DNA of 11,226 nucleotides, from the IMG/VR virus record IMGVR_UViG_2563366822_000009; one strand, 5' to 3'. The position numbers and the translations under genes are program-made. Under the pieces are notes generated by a model, which saw nothing but the letters and a program-made list of their open reading frames with translations, was not told the DNA's origin and ran no database searches. The DNA is from a virus (taxonomy: Duplodnaviria > Heunggongvirae > Uroviricota > Caudoviricetes). Each line of letters starts with the position of its first letter. Position 1 is the first letter of the stretch. Positions 4,077 to 9,587 of the stretch are shown here, one piece after another.

Positions 4077-4578
4077 AATTCCATCCAGCTTTTTGTTGGT
4101 ATTGCTGTCGATACGCAAGCTTGAAAGCAATTGCTTTTTCTATAAGTTCGTCAGTTTCACGATCTACAACGGCAGGATCTGCAAAAAGCAGTCCAGATTC
4201 CACCACATCGCCATATTCTTTATTTAACCCGGCGATCATGTACGTAATACTTTTTCCATCACTGATCTCACGATACAACCTGAAATCACTAATCCGGATA
4301 GCCTCCATAATTGCAGGCACTAGCGCTGTGAACTTTTCACGCTTATCCCTGGTGTCGATAGCCTTCCAGCGTTCGAATATCTTCACTCGATTAACGCTAA
4401 GCGCTCGCTGATCAACCGCGCCACCTTCATATGTGACACGCTGAACATCGATGTTCGGGCGCTCTTTCAAAGCCCAGAATGCTTCAGTGATTAATATCGT
4501 CGCCTGCTCCTGTGTCATTCCTGGTCGACATATCCAGGCATCCAGAGCCTCACGAGCCTGTTCAGGAGTGATTTTCAT
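4057..4578 (-). CDS. Hypothetical protein, 173 aa, between the cro-like gene and the replication initiator (cII-position gene; possibly a YdaT-like regulator)
   Basis: ATG at 4576-4578 overlaps the dicC-like stop (4562-4564) by 17 nt, and its stop (4057-4059) overlaps the O-like start by 20 nt, indicating one tightly packed operon. I do not recognise the family with confidence. Confidence 0.7.
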   Translation of the reverse strand: MKITPEQAREALDAWICRPGMTQEQATILITEAFWALKERPNIDVQRVTYEGGAVDQRALSVNRVKIFERWKAIDTRDKREKFTALVPAIMEAIRISDFRLYREISDGKSITYMIAGLNKEYGDVVESGLLFADPAVVDRETDELIEKAIAFKLAYRQQYQQKAGWNYESSFC

Positions 4579-4789
4579 TGTTCAACCGCCCCGCCCGCTT
4601 CGTCTTACGATATTCGTCATAAACTTTGGGATCATACTGAAGCTCCCCGCCAGATGCCTCCTGTAGACGCATCGCGCGACCTTCAGGAACCAGTATCCCC
4701 CAAGCAGCAACACTTGCCAGTCTCACTCCTGCGGCATTGGCAAGCTTTGTTTTGCTGCCAAAAAAAGTAATTGCGTCAACTTTAAGCAT
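4562..4789 (-). CDS. dicC: Cro-type repressor, DicC-like (75 aa)
   Basis: Translation MLKVDAITFFGSKTKLANAAGVRLASVAAWGILVPEGRAMRLQEASGGELQYDPKVYDEY... resembles DicC of the Qin prophage as I remember it. ATG at 4787-4789 is preceded by AGGGGG with 5-nt spacing; the track start is the TTG one codon upstream. Divergent from the dicA-like gene. Confidence 0.8.
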   Translation of the reverse strand: MLKVDAITFFGSKTKLANAAGVRLASVAAWGILVPEGRAMRLQEASGGELQYDPKVYDEYRKTKRAGRLNNENHS

Positions 4790-4802
4790 CAAAGCCCCCT
4801 CT

Positions 4803-4869: not shown

Positions 4870-5277
4870 ATGGATACAAGAACCCTAGGCCAGCGAGTTC
4901 TGGCGCGACGAAAAGAATTACGCTTAACACAACGAGAAGCTGCGCGCCTCGCTGGAGTTGCTCACGTCACAATTTCACAATGGGAAAGAGACGAAACCCA
5001 GCCAGTCGGAAAACGATTGTTTGCTTTAGCGGATGCTCTGAAGTGCTCACCTACATGGCTAATGTTTGGTGACGAAGACAAGGCACCAGTGCCTGCACAA
5101 GAACTTCATGTGGAAACAGAGCTAACTCCCAACCACAAAGAATTGATCGAATTATTCGATGCTCTTCCATCTTCCGAGCAGGAAGCCTTGCTGTCTGAAA
5201 TGCGCGCAAGAGTAGAAAACTTCAACAAACTCTTCGAAGAAATGCTTAAAGCGCGTAAAAATAAATCAATAAAATAA
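4870..5277 (+). CDS. dicA: XRE-family HTH repressor, DicA-like (CI-type immunity repressor), 135 aa
   Basis: N-terminal HTH (LTQREAARLAGVAHVTISQWERDETQP) and the C-terminal portion (CSPTWLMFGDEDK...EMRARVENFNKLFEEMLKARK) resemble DicA as I remember it; same length as DicA. ATG at 4870, stop TAA at 5275-5277. Confidence 0.85.
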   Translation: MDTRTLGQRVLARRKELRLTQREAARLAGVAHVTISQWERDETQPVGKRLFALADALKCSPTWLMFGDEDKAPVPAQELHVETELTPNHKELIELFDALPSSEQEALLSEMRARVENFNKLFEEMLKARKNKSIK

Positions 5278-5444: not shown

Positions 5445-5597
5445 ATGGATACTATCGATCTTGGCAACAGCGAATCTCTGGTATGTGGCGTGTTCCCCAA
5501 CCAAGACGGTACGTTCACCGCGATGACATATACCAAAAGCAAAACGTTTAAAACCGAATCTGGCGCGCGTTGCTGGTTAGCCAGAAACACTGACTGA
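5445..5597 (+). CDS. ydfA: Small protein, 50 aa, YdfA-like (first gene of the dicB-type operon)
   Basis: ATG at 5445-5447 preceded by GAGG with 5-nt spacing; the track ORF starts at an upstream GTG without a ribosome-binding site. Size and position directly downstream of dicA match ydfA of Qin. Stop TGA 5595-5597. Confidence 0.55.
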   Translation: MDTIDLGNSESLVCGVFPNQDGTFTAMTYTKSKTFKTESGARCWLARNTD

Positions 5598-5608
5598 TGA
5601 GGCTGACG

Positions 5609-5974
5609 ATGGAATTTAAAGATTTACCGTCTGATGTACAGAAAACAGCAGCTCATACATTGCATTCTGTGCTGCGAGAAATCGGGAAAGATATTGCAAG
5701 CGAGCCAGCAAAAGATCTGGCCCGGAAAATCAAGACCGCTTTCGTTGAGCTTTATAATGTTGGCACTGACTCTGAAACTGTCGAGACCAAGACCGTAAGT
5801 TCACCAATATTCTCACTTGAGCCAGGCGTATTATCAGGTGAAATATGCACCGAGATTTCCAGCGAACTGCTTCCGGTAATACGAGAAGCAATTTGCCGTC
5901 GCGGTTTGGATGGAAGTTACGATCATGACGTCCTGCAAGTTCTCAGGACAATGGTGACTTCACTGGGGATTTGA
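5609..5974 (+). CDS. Hypothetical protein, 121 aa (dicB-operon-region protein, YdfB/YdfC position)
   Basis: ATG at 5609 preceded by GAGG (5599-5602) with 6-nt spacing. The track start at 5597 overlaps the upstream stop as TGATG but has no ribosome-binding site. Stop TGA 5972-5974. Confidence 0.6.
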   Translation: MEFKDLPSDVQKTAAHTLHSVLREIGKDIASEPAKDLARKIKTAFVELYNVGTDSETVETKTVSSPIFSLEPGVLSGEICTEISSELLPVIREAICRRGLDGSYDHDVLQVLRTMVTSLGI

Positions 5975-6143
5975 TCCCTGCGTCCTCTAACCTTTTGATA
6001 TAGCGGTCCTCCAAGAAGCGGTAAATTTTGTCGAAATCATCTTTCCCCTCTGGTTTATTCAGAGGATTACAGGACCCGTAAGTAGCGGCATACATTTCAA
6101 CCGTTTTATCAAAAATATAAGAGACAAATTCTTCTTTAGTCAT
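5943..6143 (-). CDS. Hypothetical small protein, 66 aa, convergent with and antisense to the dicB-type operon
   Basis: ATG at 6141-6143 (complement) preceded by AAGGA with 7-nt spacing. Its 3' end overlaps the 3' end of the 121-aa gene by 32 bp (5943-5974). Locally more A+T-rich than its neighbours by eye. Confidence 0.5.
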   Translation of the reverse strand: MTKEEFVSYIFDKTVEMYAATYGSCNPLNKPEGKDDFDKIYRFLEDRYIKRLEDAGIKSPVKSPLS

Positions 6144-6222
6144 ATAGATTTCCTTCTTGGTTATTCGGGATAAGAAGGATACCACCTCGCCTGACGTGGT
6201 TAAAAGCAGGCACACAACACGA

Positions 6223-6284
6223 AAGCGCACGGCGAAGTTCGTCTCACTGTACGGTGTCGTTAAATTTAATTCGACCGTGCGCTT
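6223..6284. repeat. Perfect 10-bp inverted repeat AAGCGCACGG / CCGTGCGCTT separated by 42 nt, followed by GGTTG-TGG-CAACC palindrome (6287-6299)
   Basis: Seen directly; located in the non-coding stretch between the 66-aa gene start and the DicF-like sRNA. Confidence 0.5.
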
Positions 6285-6418
6285 CCGGTTGTGGCAACCC
6301 GCGAAATGGCGCGGCGGTAAGTATGGCGGGGTTATTCCTTCCCCGTTGAGGACACCGAGTTGTCAGGTTGACCATACGCTTAAGTGACAACCCCGCTGCA
6401 ACGCCCTCTGTTATCAAT

Positions 6419-6476
6419 TTTCTGGTGACGTTTGGCGGTATCAGTTTTACTCCGTGACTGCTCTGCCGCCGTTTTT
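6419..6476 (+). ncRNA. dicF: DicF-like small RNA (ftsZ-targeting antisense sRNA of Qin-type prophages) with intrinsic terminator
   Basis: Sequence TTTCTGGTGACGTTTGGCGGTATCAGTTTTACTCCGTGACTGCTCTGCCGCC followed by GTTTTT matches my memory of the roughly 53-nt DicF RNA. GGCGG (6434-6438) / CCGCC (6466-6470) stem followed by a T5 run. Lies about 175 bp upstream of dicB. Confidence 0.6.
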
Positions 6477-6645
6477 AAAGTGAATTTTGTGATGCGGTGA
6501 ATGCGGCTAAGCACACGCGGAACAGTTAAAACCAAAAACAGTGTTATGGGTGGATTCTCTGTATCCGGCGTTAATTGTTAACTGGTTAACGTCACCTGGA
6601 GGCACCAGGCACTGCATCACAAAATTCATTGTTGAGGACGCGATA

Positions 6646-6834
6646 ATGAAAACGTTATTACCAAACGTTAATACGTCTGAAGGTTGTTTTGAAATTGGTG
6701 TCACTATCAGTAACCCTGTATTTACTGAAGATGCCATTAACAAGAGAAAACAAGAACGGGAGCTATTAAATAAAATATGCATTGTTTCAATGCTGGCTCG
6801 TTTACGTCTGATGCCAAAAGGATGTGCACAATGA
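6646..6834 (+). CDS. dicB: Cell-division inhibitor DicB, 62 aa
   Basis: Translation MKTLLPNVNTSEGCFEIGVTISNPVFTEDAINKRKQERELLNKICIVSMLARLRLMPKGCAQ matches my memory of DicB. ATG at 6646 preceded by GAGGA with 7-nt spacing; the track ORF begins further upstream at an unsupported start. Confidence 0.8.
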   Translation: MKTLLPNVNTSEGCFEIGVTISNPVFTEDAINKRKQERELLNKICIVSMLARLRLMPKGCAQ

Positions 6835-7022
6835 ATTCAGCATTTGCGCTTGTTCTGACAGTTTTTCTTGTTTCCGGAGAGCCAGTTGATATTGCAGTCA
6901 GTGTTCACAGGACAATGCAGGAGTGTATGACTGCAGCAACCGAACAGAAAATTCCCGGTAACTGTTACCCGGTCGATAAAGTTATTCACCAGGATAATAT
7001 CGAAATCCCGGCAGGTCTTTAA
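6831..7022 (+). CDS. ydfD: YdfD-like small protein, 63 aa, with hydrophobic N-terminus
   Basis: ATG 6831-6833 overlaps the dicB stop TGA 6832-6834 (ATGA). The N-terminus MNSAFALVLTVFLVSG is hydrophobic. Position after dicB matches ydfD of Qin. Confidence 0.7.
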   Translation: MNSAFALVLTVFLVSGEPVDIAVSVHRTMQECMTAATEQKIPGNCYPVDKVIHQDNIEIPAGL

Positions 7023-7115: not shown

Positions 7116-9587
7116 ATGAGTAAAGTCTTTATTTGCGCCGCTATTCCTGACGAACTGGCAACAAGGGAAGAAGGCGCTGTGGCTGTAGCCACAGCCATTG
7201 AAGCTGGCGACGAACGCCGTGCTCGAGCAAAATTTCACTGGCAGTTCCTGGAACATTATCCGGCTGCTCAGGACTGCGCTTATAAATTTATTGTCTGCGA
7301 GGATAAACCTGGCATACCCCGCCCTGCCCTCGATTCATGGGATGCTGAATATATGCAGGAAAACCGCTGGGATGAGGAGTCTGCTTCTTTTGTCCCGGTT
7401 GAGACTGAATCCGATCCGATGAACGTCACTTTTGACAAGCTGGCCCCTGAAGTACAGAACGCTGTCATGGTTAAGTTCGACACATGTGAAAACATCACCG
7501 TTGATATGGTTATTAGCGCACAGGAATTGTTGCAGGAAGACATGGCAACATTCGACGGACATATCGTTGAAGCGTTGATGAAAATGCCAGAAGTTAACGC
7601 CATGTATCCGGAGCTTAAGTTGCACGCCATTGGGTGGGTTAAGCATAAATGTATTCCTGGTGCTAAATGGCCCGAAATTCAGGCAGAGATGCGCATCTGG
7701 AAAAAACGTCGCGAAGGTGAACGCAAGGAAACCGGAAAATACACGTCTGTTGTTGATCTCGCCCGCGCCAGAGCCAATCAACAGTACACTGAAAATTCAA
7801 CAGGAAAAATCAGCCCGGTCATTGCTGCCATTCATCGCGAATACAAGCAGACATGGAAAACACTGGATGACGAACTGGCCTACGCTCTCTGGCCTGGTGA
7901 TGTGGATGCCGGAAACATTGACGGCAGCATCCATCGCTGGGCAAAAAAAGAAGTTATCGACAACGACCGCGAAGACTGGAAGCGTATCTCGGCATCAATG
8001 CGCAAACAGCCTGATGCCCTTCGCTACGACCGCCAAACTATTTTTGGCCTTGTCCGTGAGCGTCCGATCGACATTCACAAAGATCCCGTAGCACTGAACA
8101 AATATATCTGCGAATACCTGACGACAAAGGGCGTGTTTGAGAATGAAGAAACAGACCTGGGCACTGTTGATGTTCTCCAGTCATCAGAAACACAAACTGA
8201 TGCAGTGGAAACTGAGGTATCTGATATCCCAAAAAATGAAACCGCGCCGGAAGCTGAACCATCTGTAGAGCGTGAGGGGCCGTTCTATTTCCTCTTCGCA
8301 GGTAAGGACGGAGAAAAATACGGTCGCGCAAACAAACTTTCTGGTCTGGATAAGGCACTGGCTGCTGGCGCCACTGAAATCACAAAAGAAGAATATTTTG
8401 CCCGAAAAAATGGCACATACACGGGCTTACCGCAAAATGTTGATACCGCTGAAAAGACCGAACAACCAGAGCCGATAAAAGTTACCGCTGACGAAGTAAA
8501 CAAAATTATGCAGGCAGCCAATATCAGCCAGCCTGACGCCGATAAGTTGCTTGCTGCATCACGTGGTGAATTTGTTGAAGGGATTAGTGCCCCGAATGAT
8601 CCGAAATGGGTTAAGGGGATCCAGACCCGCGATTCTATGAACCAGAACCAGCATGAATCGGAACGGAACTACCAAAAAGCGGAACAAAACAGCCCAAATG
8701 CGTTACAAAACGAGCCAGAAACGAAACAGCCTGAACCAATGGCGCAACAGGAAGTGGAAAAAGTCTGCACCGCCTGCGGTCAGACCGGCGGCGGCAACTG
8801 CCCTGATTGTGGCGCGGTGATGGGCGACGCAACATACCAAGAAACATTCGATGAAGAGTATCAGGTTGAAGTTCAGGAAGATGATCCGGAGGAAATGGAA
8901 GGCGCTGAACATCCACACAAGGAGAACACTGGCGGCAATCAGCATCACAATAGCGATAATGAAACTGGCGAGACGGCAGATCACTCAATTAAGGTGAACG
9001 GTCATCACGAAATCACATCCACCAGCAGGACGTGTGACCATCTAATGATCGACCTTGAAACCATGGGAAAAAATCCTGATGCCCCGATCATCTCAATAGG
9101 TGCAATATTTTTCGATCCGCAAACCGGAGATATGGGACCGGAATTTAGTAAGACTATCGATCTGGAAACTGCTGGCGGAGTCATTGATCGGGACACCATT
9201 AAATGGTGGCTTAAGCAATCACGCGAAGCGCAATCTGCCATTATGACCGATGAAATCCCGTTAGATGATGCACTGTTACAATTGCGGGAATTTATCGACG
9301 AAAACTCCGGTGAATTTTTTGTTCAGGTTTGGGGAAATGGAGCCAACTTCGACAACACGATTTTGCGCCGTTCATACGAACGGCAGGGGATCCCCTGCCC
9401 GTGGCGTTACTACAACGATCGCGATGTACGCACAATCGTTGAGCTGGGGAAAGCCATAGATTTCGATGCCAGAACGGCTATTCCATTCGAAGGTGAGCGC
9501 CATAATGCACTTGATGACGCCCGTTACCAGGCAAAATACGTTTCAGTTATCTGGCAAAAACTGATCCCGAGTCAGGCTGATTCTTAA
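7116..9587 (+). CDS. Large prophage protein, 823 aa, with C-terminal DnaQ-like DEDDh 3'-5' exonuclease domain; resembles the family annotated exodeoxyribonuclease VIII / YdfE-like in E. coli prophages
   Basis: ATG at 7116, stop TAA 9585-9587. C-terminal motifs seen directly: Exo I MIDLETMG (D646, E648; codon 9051), Exo [10 protein letters not shown] (D746; codon 9351), Exo III HNALDDA (H796, D801; codon 9501). Acidic low-complexity linker with C-x2-C-x7-C-x2-C zinc ribbon at 8766-8810. Segment [31 protein letters not shown] resembles a RecE segment as I recall it. Confidence 0.9.

Follow-up and report, generated by a model that had tools for sequence, protein, structure and literature searches.

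The DNA considered here is an 11,226-nt stretch of a tailed-virus genome (Caudoviricetes; IMG/VR record IMGVR_UViG_2563366822_000009), hereafter the window, and the element in question is the interval of its dicB-type early operon that lies just upstream of the small RNA DicF. This interval contains an inverted repeat and, on the minus strand, an open reading frame (ORF) of 66 amino acids (aa) that converges on a plus-strand gene of 121 aa. Our analysis led us to the view that two separable things are probably present: the inverted repeat would be an RNase III processing stem and the 66-aa ORF a real small prophage gene of the moron-like kind. An earlier, sequence-only reading had pointed out the ORF and the repeat, and had offered convergent-transcription control, a processing or attenuation structure, or a small moron gene as possible explanations. 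By sequence identity, the window can be assigned to the Qin-like lambdoid prophage of E. coli B/BL21 and to the type of phage mEp460. Over positions 5600-6650, the identity is 99.9% to a Qin-like prophage shared by E. coli B strains (BL21(DE3) and REL606) and to many other E. coli; over positions 5900-6420, the identity to phage mEp460_ev081 is 99.8%.

The perfect 10-bp inverted repeat was found where it had been reported, with arms at 6223-6232 and 6275-6284 separated by a spacer of 42 nt. A bare repeat of this length at such a spacing would be unremarkable, its chance expectation being estimated at about 0.1 per 800 nt. It is, however, the core of an interrupted stem of ~20-23 bp (6213-6236 with 6270-6293). 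More specifically, a repeat search lengthened the arms to 13 nt at 92% (6220-6232 with 6275-6287), and this central segment holds one A/C mismatch. An outer segment of 6 bp (6213-6218 with 6288-6293) is joined to it via a bulged A6219, while four inner pairs (6233-6236 with 6270-6273) come from the minimum-energy fold and are followed by a variable apical part of ~33 nt. The stem-loop at 6211-6295 was found to fold with an energy of -35.6 kcal/mol, and none of 200 shuffled sequences folded as well (z = -4.4). The resulting structure, delimited at 6213-6293 of the operon-sense (plus-strand) RNA by repeat search, folding and covariation, is a helix of about two turns with 19-23 pairs, one bulge and one mismatch.

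The role proposed for this stem is drawn from E. coli K-12. Ragunathan et al. 2023 (PMC10448788), confirming earlier work of Faubladier et al. 1990, reported that DicF is processed in K-12 from the polycistronic dicBp transcript and found no evidence of an internal promoter. The same study described a 190-nt DicF species, the 5′ end of which is RNase III-dependent, and a 53-nt species for which RNase E is needed. Comparison with the K-12 Qin interval upstream of dicF, a check that the sequence-only reading had suggested, revealed that the stem sequence is orthologous and that K-12 has both arms, the right one without any difference and the left one with a single change, C6230 to T, which gives a U·G pair on the plus strand. 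Homology with K-12 Qin starts at ~6208, and from 6267 on, dicB included, the two sequences are nearly the same; the structured leader between the stem and DicF (6294-6418, plus strand; K-12 alignment and folding) is almost identical, the distance from the stem to DicF is equal, and 52 of the 53 bases of K-12 dicF are the same in the window. The two loci differ in the apical loop and in the left flank, which is made of the 121-aa gene and the reversed ORF in the window and of ydfB and ydfC in K-12.

Counting 190 nt back from the 3′ end of DicF leads to position 6282, or to ~6287 if the U-tail of the terminator is taken into account, and both positions are in the right arm. The RNase III cut that generates the 5′ end of the 190-nt species would accordingly be placed, by length, at 6281-6287 of the plus strand, as in the upstream RNase III site of the K-12 dicBF operon. 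The RNase E-dependent 5′ end of the 53-nt species corresponds to the 3′ border of the leader (K-12 data, PMC10448788). Cleavage was given in that study as ‘between 813 and 814’, a numbering that fits an origin a few bases downstream of the TTGACC-17-TAATCT promoter located after dicA in K-12; with a start site just downstream of this promoter, the numbering agrees with the 190-nt product. TTGACC-17-TAATCT is a good promoter match between dicA and ydfA (positions 1895-1932 of the K-12 locus, L002). The sequence presented in a supplementary figure of the same paper begins inside what is here the loop, and two RNase III cleavage-mapping papers mention DicF by citation only.

A 72-nt DicF species with a 3′ end made by RNase III has also been described (cited in PMC5069750 and PMC9438474). 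Position 72 from the 5′ end of DicF is 6490, and the dicF-dicB spacer is bracketed by a long-range inverted repeat (6481-6499 with 6610-6628; 19 nt, 95%) whose left arm includes this position. This plus-strand element (6481-6628), identified by repeat search, is a probable downstream RNase III site giving the 72-nt species. DicF is thus situated between two helices, each of which matches a reported RNase III product, and on this basis the inverted repeat upstream of it is most likely the upstream RNase III site of the DicF precursor, with cleavage in this prophage presumed from the orthology. The ‘processing structure’ among the earlier suggestions was therefore upheld, both by orthology to the sequence of the K-12 RNase III end and by covariation in support of the helix.

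From a collection of ~120 DicF-bearing viral contigs, 96 distinct DicF leaders were extracted. The arms of the stem were nearly invariant throughout and the loop between them occurred as several unrelated variants; RNAalifold returned a consensus stem of 20 pairs. Changes within these leaders were one-sided only, so that no real covariation was obtained from them. The decisive loci were homologues of the 66-aa gene found in DicF-less prophages (L132, L133 and L134) and in Salmonella (L196 and L197), all of which have the same stem in the same place, directly downstream of the reversed gene in the operon sense. Compensatory changes convert the CACGG/CCGTG of the window into CACTCC/GGAGTG in L132, GCACAT/GTGTGC in L134 and CATTG/CAGTG in L196. 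In L133, GCTAAG/CTTAGC substitutes the inner helix and the outer CATAAC/GTTGTG is retained. Over 26 distinct arm constructs, 92.9% of the cells were paired, compared with 18-43% in a control in which the partner was slid by 1-3 columns. Double changes were observed in five pairs (nine cells), and the covariation score was not attained by any of 500 shuffles. The alignment of these arms thus supports the helix by covariation. Changes of C to U opposite G occur at five columns and keep pairing on the plus strand only, a pattern that mildly favours operon-sense RNA; the version in the window itself does about as well on either strand.

The stem, the 66-aa gene and DicF were found in differing combinations. 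Loci of the K-12 type have the stem without the 66-aa ORF, and DicF is missing from L132-134, where ORF and stem are both present. Lastly, L177, L178, L193 and L194 have kept the ORF and a DicF-like RNA and have lost the sequence from 6219 to ~6299 of the window, CACACAAC being joined to GCGAAATG. The K-12-type loci and these four show that ORF and repeat do not form one device. In L132 and L133, the right arm GTTGTGG directly abuts TGAATGCGGCT (longer: TGAATGCGGCTCAGCGCACGCG), the window sequence just 3′ of DicF at ~6497-6520, which makes the ~200 bp of leader and DicF resemble an insertion into an older stem-bearing backbone. This segment (6294-6496 of the window) is flanked by short TGTGG/TGCGG repeats. 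The stem would on this comparison be an ancestral element of this type of early-left operon, not of DicF itself, and older than DicF there. In L196 and L197 (Salmonella Braenderup) and in L177, a leader of the same architecture ends in a divergent DicF-like small RNA (…TTTGGCGGCATCAGTTT(A/C)ATTGCTGGCTGATGTCCGCCCTTTT) with a different 5′ region; kilR and ydaE come next in Salmonella, in place of dicB.

Such junctions could also be read as a sign that the arms owe their conservation mainly to mosaic exchange, as a recombination joint at which cassettes of lambdoid early operons are swapped. Unrelated loop sequences are indeed found between identical arms, homology with K-12, HannyBb and others ends on its left side within about 40 nt of the stem, the GTTGTGG|TGAATGCGGCT junction of L132 and L133 leaves the DicF segment looking like an insert, and the deletion of the L177 type ends in CAAC(N)CG repeats at the base of the stem. 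Double changes that preserve pairing are, however, unexpected from a mere joint, and the RNase III dependence of the RNA end at this place is experimental in K-12 (PMC10448788). We therefore regard a joint as very unlikely to be the main reason for the conservation of the arms, although the two explanations are compatible.

Other structures were considered at the same place. The second palindrome (GGTTG-TGG-CAACC, 6287-6299, plus strand; folding and alignment) is present as had been noted, but did not stand up as a feature in its own right: it is a weak hairpin of 5 bp, the left half of which is shared with the long stem. Its fold of -3.1 kcal/mol was equalled by 34 of 200 shuffles and its CAACC reads CAATC or CACTC in most DicF leaders; it competes with the long stem and is probably not functional. 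The suggestion of an attenuation structure was not sustained either, as no U-run follows the inverted repeat. An intrinsic terminator or attenuator was rejected on the grounds of a loop of 33-42 nt and of the sequence GGCAACCCGCG after the right arm, which has no T-run, and a terminator scan gave no match at the inverted repeat. In Rfam, searched with a permissive threshold, nothing but DicF was found in 5800-6418.

The second component of the interval, the 66-aa ORF, was also found as described earlier. It occupies 5943-6143 of the minus strand, from the ATG at 6143-6141 to the last base of the stop codon at 5943, shares 32 bp with the 121-aa gene (5943-5974) and is preceded by a good ribosome-binding site, AAGAAGGAAA (minus strand, 6158-6149), the AAGGA core of which lies 7 nt before the ATG. 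All homologous loci keep this Shine-Dalgarno sequence, as (A/G)GAAGGAAA or AAAGGAAA. RefSeq already lists the ORF, as the hypothetical protein WP_000159335.1 of BL21(DE3), and its product belongs to phrog_34441, a family of unknown function in PHROGs. Over the 55 codons that overlap nothing, the proportions of non-synonymous (pN) and synonymous (pS) differences were 0.15-0.28 and ~0.62-0.81, with a ratio of substitution rates (dN/dS) of about 0.1-0.26, the synonymous sites of the gene being saturated. Variable sites showed an excess at the third codon position (15, 13 and 34 at positions 1, 2 and 3, respectively), and homologues at 54-91% identity have kept length, start and frame. This substitution pattern identifies the ORF as a real coding gene under purifying selection. 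Selection of this strength implies that the protein itself is maintained, and not transcription alone.

An alternative is that so short an ORF is open by chance only, in a spacer that is not translated; no family, fold or literature support and no strong consensus promoter or terminator was found for it. This alternative is close to untenable and already looks refuted by the low dN/dS over the non-overlapping codons and the third-position excess. Frame, length and start have in addition been maintained in homologues of 54-73% identity from three unrelated contexts, conservation extends to the Shine-Dalgarno sequence, and the structure predicted for the protein is confident for its size. Two other frames were set aside: a GTG-extended version of 95 aa (to 6230), the extension of which is not conserved and would cross the stem, and a plus-strand TTG ORF of 76 aa (6157-6387) that sits in the structured leader.

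The AlphaFold2 model of the 66-aa protein is a two-helix hairpin (residues 3-22 and 31-54) with a predicted local distance difference test score (pLDDT) of 81.5. The protein is hydrophilic, with no transmembrane segment, and is predicted to be a soluble helical hairpin. A Foldseek comparison of the model with the PDB gave no match with an E-value below 4, a profile search of PDB sequences gave none, and neither the 66-aa nor the 121-aa protein had a match in Pfam, NCBIfam or PADLOC. A toxin-antitoxin or known anti-phage defence function was dropped on the basis of those same database results and of the hydrophilic character of the protein, which is unlike that of a small hydrophobic type I toxin. 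No literature on WP_000159335 or on the 66-aa ORF was found.

The family is small. It formed 19 clusters among 5.8 billion sequences, and in 1.84 billion representative proteins, searched exhaustively with an HMMER profile, there were 13 matches, all of them to the same small family or noise. It is restricted to enterobacteria, the named sources being Escherichia (including E. ruysiae), Shigella and Cedecea, and further carriers in Salmonella and Enterobacter were found via the loci of the partner gene described below. Three matches in metagenome-assembled genomes with unrelated bin names were taken to be mis-binned E. coli-like contigs. The gene was present in 398 of 5426 complete E. coli genomes (about 7%, BL21(DE3) included) and in eight of the ~120 DicF-bearing viral contigs; K-12, HannyBb and most phages have other cassettes where the window has the 66-aa gene.

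Examination of at least seven genomic contexts revealed that the 66-aa gene always adjoins immunity genes and is always oriented against the surrounding early operon. It follows the repressor and a gene of 121-137 aa of the early-left operon in most loci; in Cedecea, it is flanked by cro and by a cII-like gene of the early-right operon. At least three unrelated repressor types co-occur with it. In every locus, its 3′ end and that of a convergent ORF overlap, and the last ~45 residues of the latter are conserved (…ELLPVIREAI.RRGLDG.YDHDVLQVLRTMVTSLG…). This partner is, in the window, the hypothetical 121-aa gene of the dicB-type early operon (5609-5974, plus strand; ORF list and RefSeq annotation of BL21(DE3)) and, in Cedecea, a short uncalled ORF that corresponds to residues ~77-121 of the 121-aa protein. 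The 121-aa protein itself is a mosaic. It matches phrog_33007 over its full length and four other PHROGs at its N-terminus, with functions assigned to none of these families; its N-terminal ~50 residues also occur in proteins with unrelated C-termini, while residues ~77-121 occur only beside the reversed 66-aa gene (L006, L007, L132-134 and L195-197). As the N-terminus is shared with proteins of unrelated C-termini, the conserved unit is the C-terminal domain together with the reversed ORF. A BLAST comparison of L132 with the window bounded the shared module at 5609-6230. The AlphaFold2 model of the 121-aa protein was poor (pLDDT 54), with two helical hairpins and a linker, and no similarity was found between this protein and YdfC of K-12.

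These comparisons suggest that the 66-aa gene and the C-terminal domain of its partner make up a mobile two-gene module, and that the 66-aa protein probably acts together with this domain, with which it is co-conserved. A more far-reaching version can be put forward, namely that this is an unrecognised module of enterobacterial lambdoid prophages whose 3′-overlapping antisense transcripts would couple its expression to the lysis-lysogeny state and whose two proteins would jointly gate DicF, DicB or KilR, for example as a switch-linked exclusion, antirepressor or toxin-neutraliser pair. We consider this version as a whole to be quite unlikely. The earlier suggestion of a small moron gene was borne out on three points, as the ORF is coding, is present or absent among related prophages and has a conserved candidate promoter.

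This candidate is the motif TG(G/A)TA(T/C)CCT, which was found 31-38 nt upstream of the ATG in 17 of 17 distinct upstream sequences from at least seven genomic contexts and is, judging by its conservation, a plausible extended -10 promoter element. It reads TGgTATCCT in the window (6176-6184, minus strand). A perfect 8-bp hairpin (6151-6158 with 6172-6179; repeat search and folds, strand unspecified) pairs the Shine-Dalgarno region, read from the sequence as AAGAAGGAAA at 6149-6158 of the minus strand, with the candidate -10 region. Its minus-strand fold has a z-score of -2.4, and the hairpin is kept in homologues with covarying extensions, such as the 11 bp of TCCTTTTAAGT with ACTTGAAAGGA in L006 and TCCTTC-TAG with CTA-G-GAAGGA in L134. 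The spacer of the candidate promoter contains a small conserved palindrome, ACCAC-N10-GTGGT (6183-6201), which reads CCACC-N6-GGTGG in L006 and L007 and may form a hairpin or be bound by a dimeric regulator. Its assignment as a prophage-repressor operator was dropped since the module co-occurs with at least three unrelated repressors. Further to the right, a promoter-like site on the minus strand (TTAACA-16-GAGAAT, 6581-6554, 9/12) points leftward and is a chance-level match; a transcript from it would be antisense to DicF.

Overall, we propose that the operon-sense transcript would start at the DicA-repressed promoter upstream of ydfA and that the stem would form in it. RNase III would cut this stem, parting the upstream coding RNA from the DicF part and creating the 5′ end of a ~190-nt precursor, which RNase E would trim to the 53-nt DicF. 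In the lysogen, with the operon under repression by DicA, a weak extended -10 promoter of its own would drive low-level leftward transcription of the 66-aa gene, and induction of the operon would silence it through head-on transcription and formation of an antisense duplex. The 66-aa ORF would then most likely be a moron-like accessory gene expressed in the lysogen. The sequence features, their conservation and covariation, the purifying selection and the orthology to the K-12 site are directly shown; cleavage in this prophage, the promoter, expression in the lysogen and any activity of the protein are what we infer.

Several observations weigh against this proposal. The position of the cut is the result of length arithmetic on K-12 data, with an uncertainty of about 5 nt, and the four loci that have lost the stem-loop and kept the ORF and a DicF-like RNA indicate that the stem is dispensable for something. 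The -35 element of the candidate promoter is weak (TTTTAA or TTTTCA at 18 bp, with 3-4 of 6 positions matched), a consensus promoter scan gave no match upstream of the 66-aa ORF at a threshold of 9/12, and a terminator scan found no minus-strand terminator-like site downstream of 5943; the counts in these promoter and terminator scans were at chance level (two promoter-like sites found against 2.4 expected). An mRNA starting at the proposed promoter would be without the upstream arm of the Shine-Dalgarno hairpin, so that either transcription starts further upstream or the hairpin serves the sense RNA. Lastly, the stem of the window is slightly more stable when folded as minus-strand RNA (-37.3 versus -35.6 kcal/mol), and its invariant A/C mismatch becomes a G·U pair on that strand.

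The last three of these points raise the question of whether the stem-loop acts on the minus strand instead, as part of a long structured 5′ leader of a 66-aa mRNA that starts to the right of 6293, where it would serve in processing or stabilisation together with the hairpin that masks the Shine-Dalgarno sequence. Such masking makes sense only in an RNA that starts upstream of 6180, and the promoter-like site at 6581-6554 is on the appropriate strand, although its match is no better than the number of sites expected by chance. K-12-type loci, however, keep the stem where there is no reversed gene, 17 of the 26 distinct arm types have U·G pairs on the plus strand that turn into A·C mismatches when read on the minus strand, and the RNase III-dependent end of K-12 was mapped on plus-strand RNA (PMC10448788). 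Action on the minus strand is accordingly judged highly improbable, and the stem is best explained as a processing site of the operon-sense RNA.

The orientation of the 66-aa gene allows for a further explanation, the first of the earlier suggestions, in which a convergent-transcription or antisense brake in cis would be its main role. Leftward RNA would collide or pair with leaky rightward transcripts and so keep DicF, DicB or, in Salmonella, KilR off in the lysogen, and the long sense/antisense duplex would be a further RNase III substrate. The antisense geometry noted in the sequence-only reading does hold: as no promoter was found inside the K-12 operon (PMC10448788), sense transcripts from dicBp must cross the ORF in antisense. 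With no terminator after the ORF, its transcript would in turn run antisense into the 121-aa gene. The convergent arrangement is conserved in every context, and the module lies upstream of division inhibitors both in the window (DicF and DicB) and in Salmonella (DicF-like RNA and KilR). On the other hand, the strong purifying selection on its sequence means that the protein matters, K-12-type loci do without the module, the module of Cedecea lies between cro and a cII-like gene and not upstream of a known toxin, and the candidate promoter is weak. We therefore hold a brake to be rather unlikely as the main function of the reversed gene, while noting that it would be compatible with a moron-like gene beside a processing stem.

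Both components resemble known features of lambdoid phages. The PL operon of phage lambda contains RNase III sites, namely the N-leader site and the sib site for retroregulation of int. Like these, the stem described here is a long imperfect stem of an early-left transcript, of the kind cut by host RNase III with a change in the fate of the flanking RNA. It has no sequence relation to them, and its role would be the release of a small-RNA precursor and possibly the stabilisation of upstream RNA, in place of control of N or int. The sieB gene of lambda and P22 is an example of a prophage moron, or reversed accessory gene, inside the early-left operon. Genes of this type and the 66-aa gene are alike in being small, present or absent among close relatives, located beside the immunity region and oriented against a repressed operon, an orientation that would permit expression in the lysogen. 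The 66-aa protein differs in that it is homologous neither to SieB nor to any other exclusion or defence protein that is known and has no transmembrane segment, and its gene has no terminator of its own and a weak candidate promoter. Unlike the moron class, it is always tied to the C-terminal domain of a convergent gene. Lastly, Rem is a small Qin-encoded antirepressor of DicA (PMC10448788). It is likewise a small protein encoded near the immunity region in the same type of prophage, and the prophage of BL21 carries rem too; it is, however, a different gene in a different place with no similarity to the 66-aa protein, which occurs with at least three unrelated repressor types.

Many E. coli, including BL21 production strains and enterohaemorrhagic E. 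coli, carry the toxic division inhibitors DicF and DicB, and the way in which their dose is set is still being worked out. The role of the stem is already in the literature; to this we add support from covariation, occurrence outside DicF loci and natural deletion variants, and the natural stem-less prophages are ready-made comparison strains. For the 66-aa ORF, the addition is modest: what was annotated as a hypothetical protein is recognised as the product of a conserved gene that lies reversed beside a fixed partner, and the ORF becomes a defined, testable small gene for which a candidate promoter, a conserved partner domain and a predicted logic of expression can be named. Neither the result on the stem nor that on the ORF overturns anything.

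The remaining gene layout was concordant between the RefSeq annotation of BL21(DE3) and the ORF list of the window, which are the sources of the assignments that follow. A Cro/DicC-like gene is located at 4562-4792 on the minus strand, followed on the plus strand by the DicA-like repressor gene (4870-5277) and by the gene for YdfA (DUF1391, also supported by Pfam), the 3′ end of which is at 5597. After the 121-aa gene, the reversed ORF and the leader comes DicF itself (6419/6420-6471, plus strand), identified by a full-length match to Rfam RF00039 at 6420-6471 with 72.5 bits against a gathering score of 48. Downstream of it are dicB (6646-6834) and ydfD (6831-7022), both on the plus strand and each with a Pfam match in addition (YdfD for the latter). 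A sub-threshold match to the Rfam family STnc100 (32.6 bits against 47) extends over 6469-6678. A gene for an 823-aa protein with an exonuclease domain (7116-9587) is intact in the window, as it is in phage mEp460_ev081 (2472-bp gene), and is included in an E. ruysiae contig that matches the window at 99.1% over 7.6 kb. Its counterpart in BL21(DE3) is annotated as a truncated pseudogene and is followed by xis and int; the copy of the prophage in the window thus appears less decayed than that of BL21.

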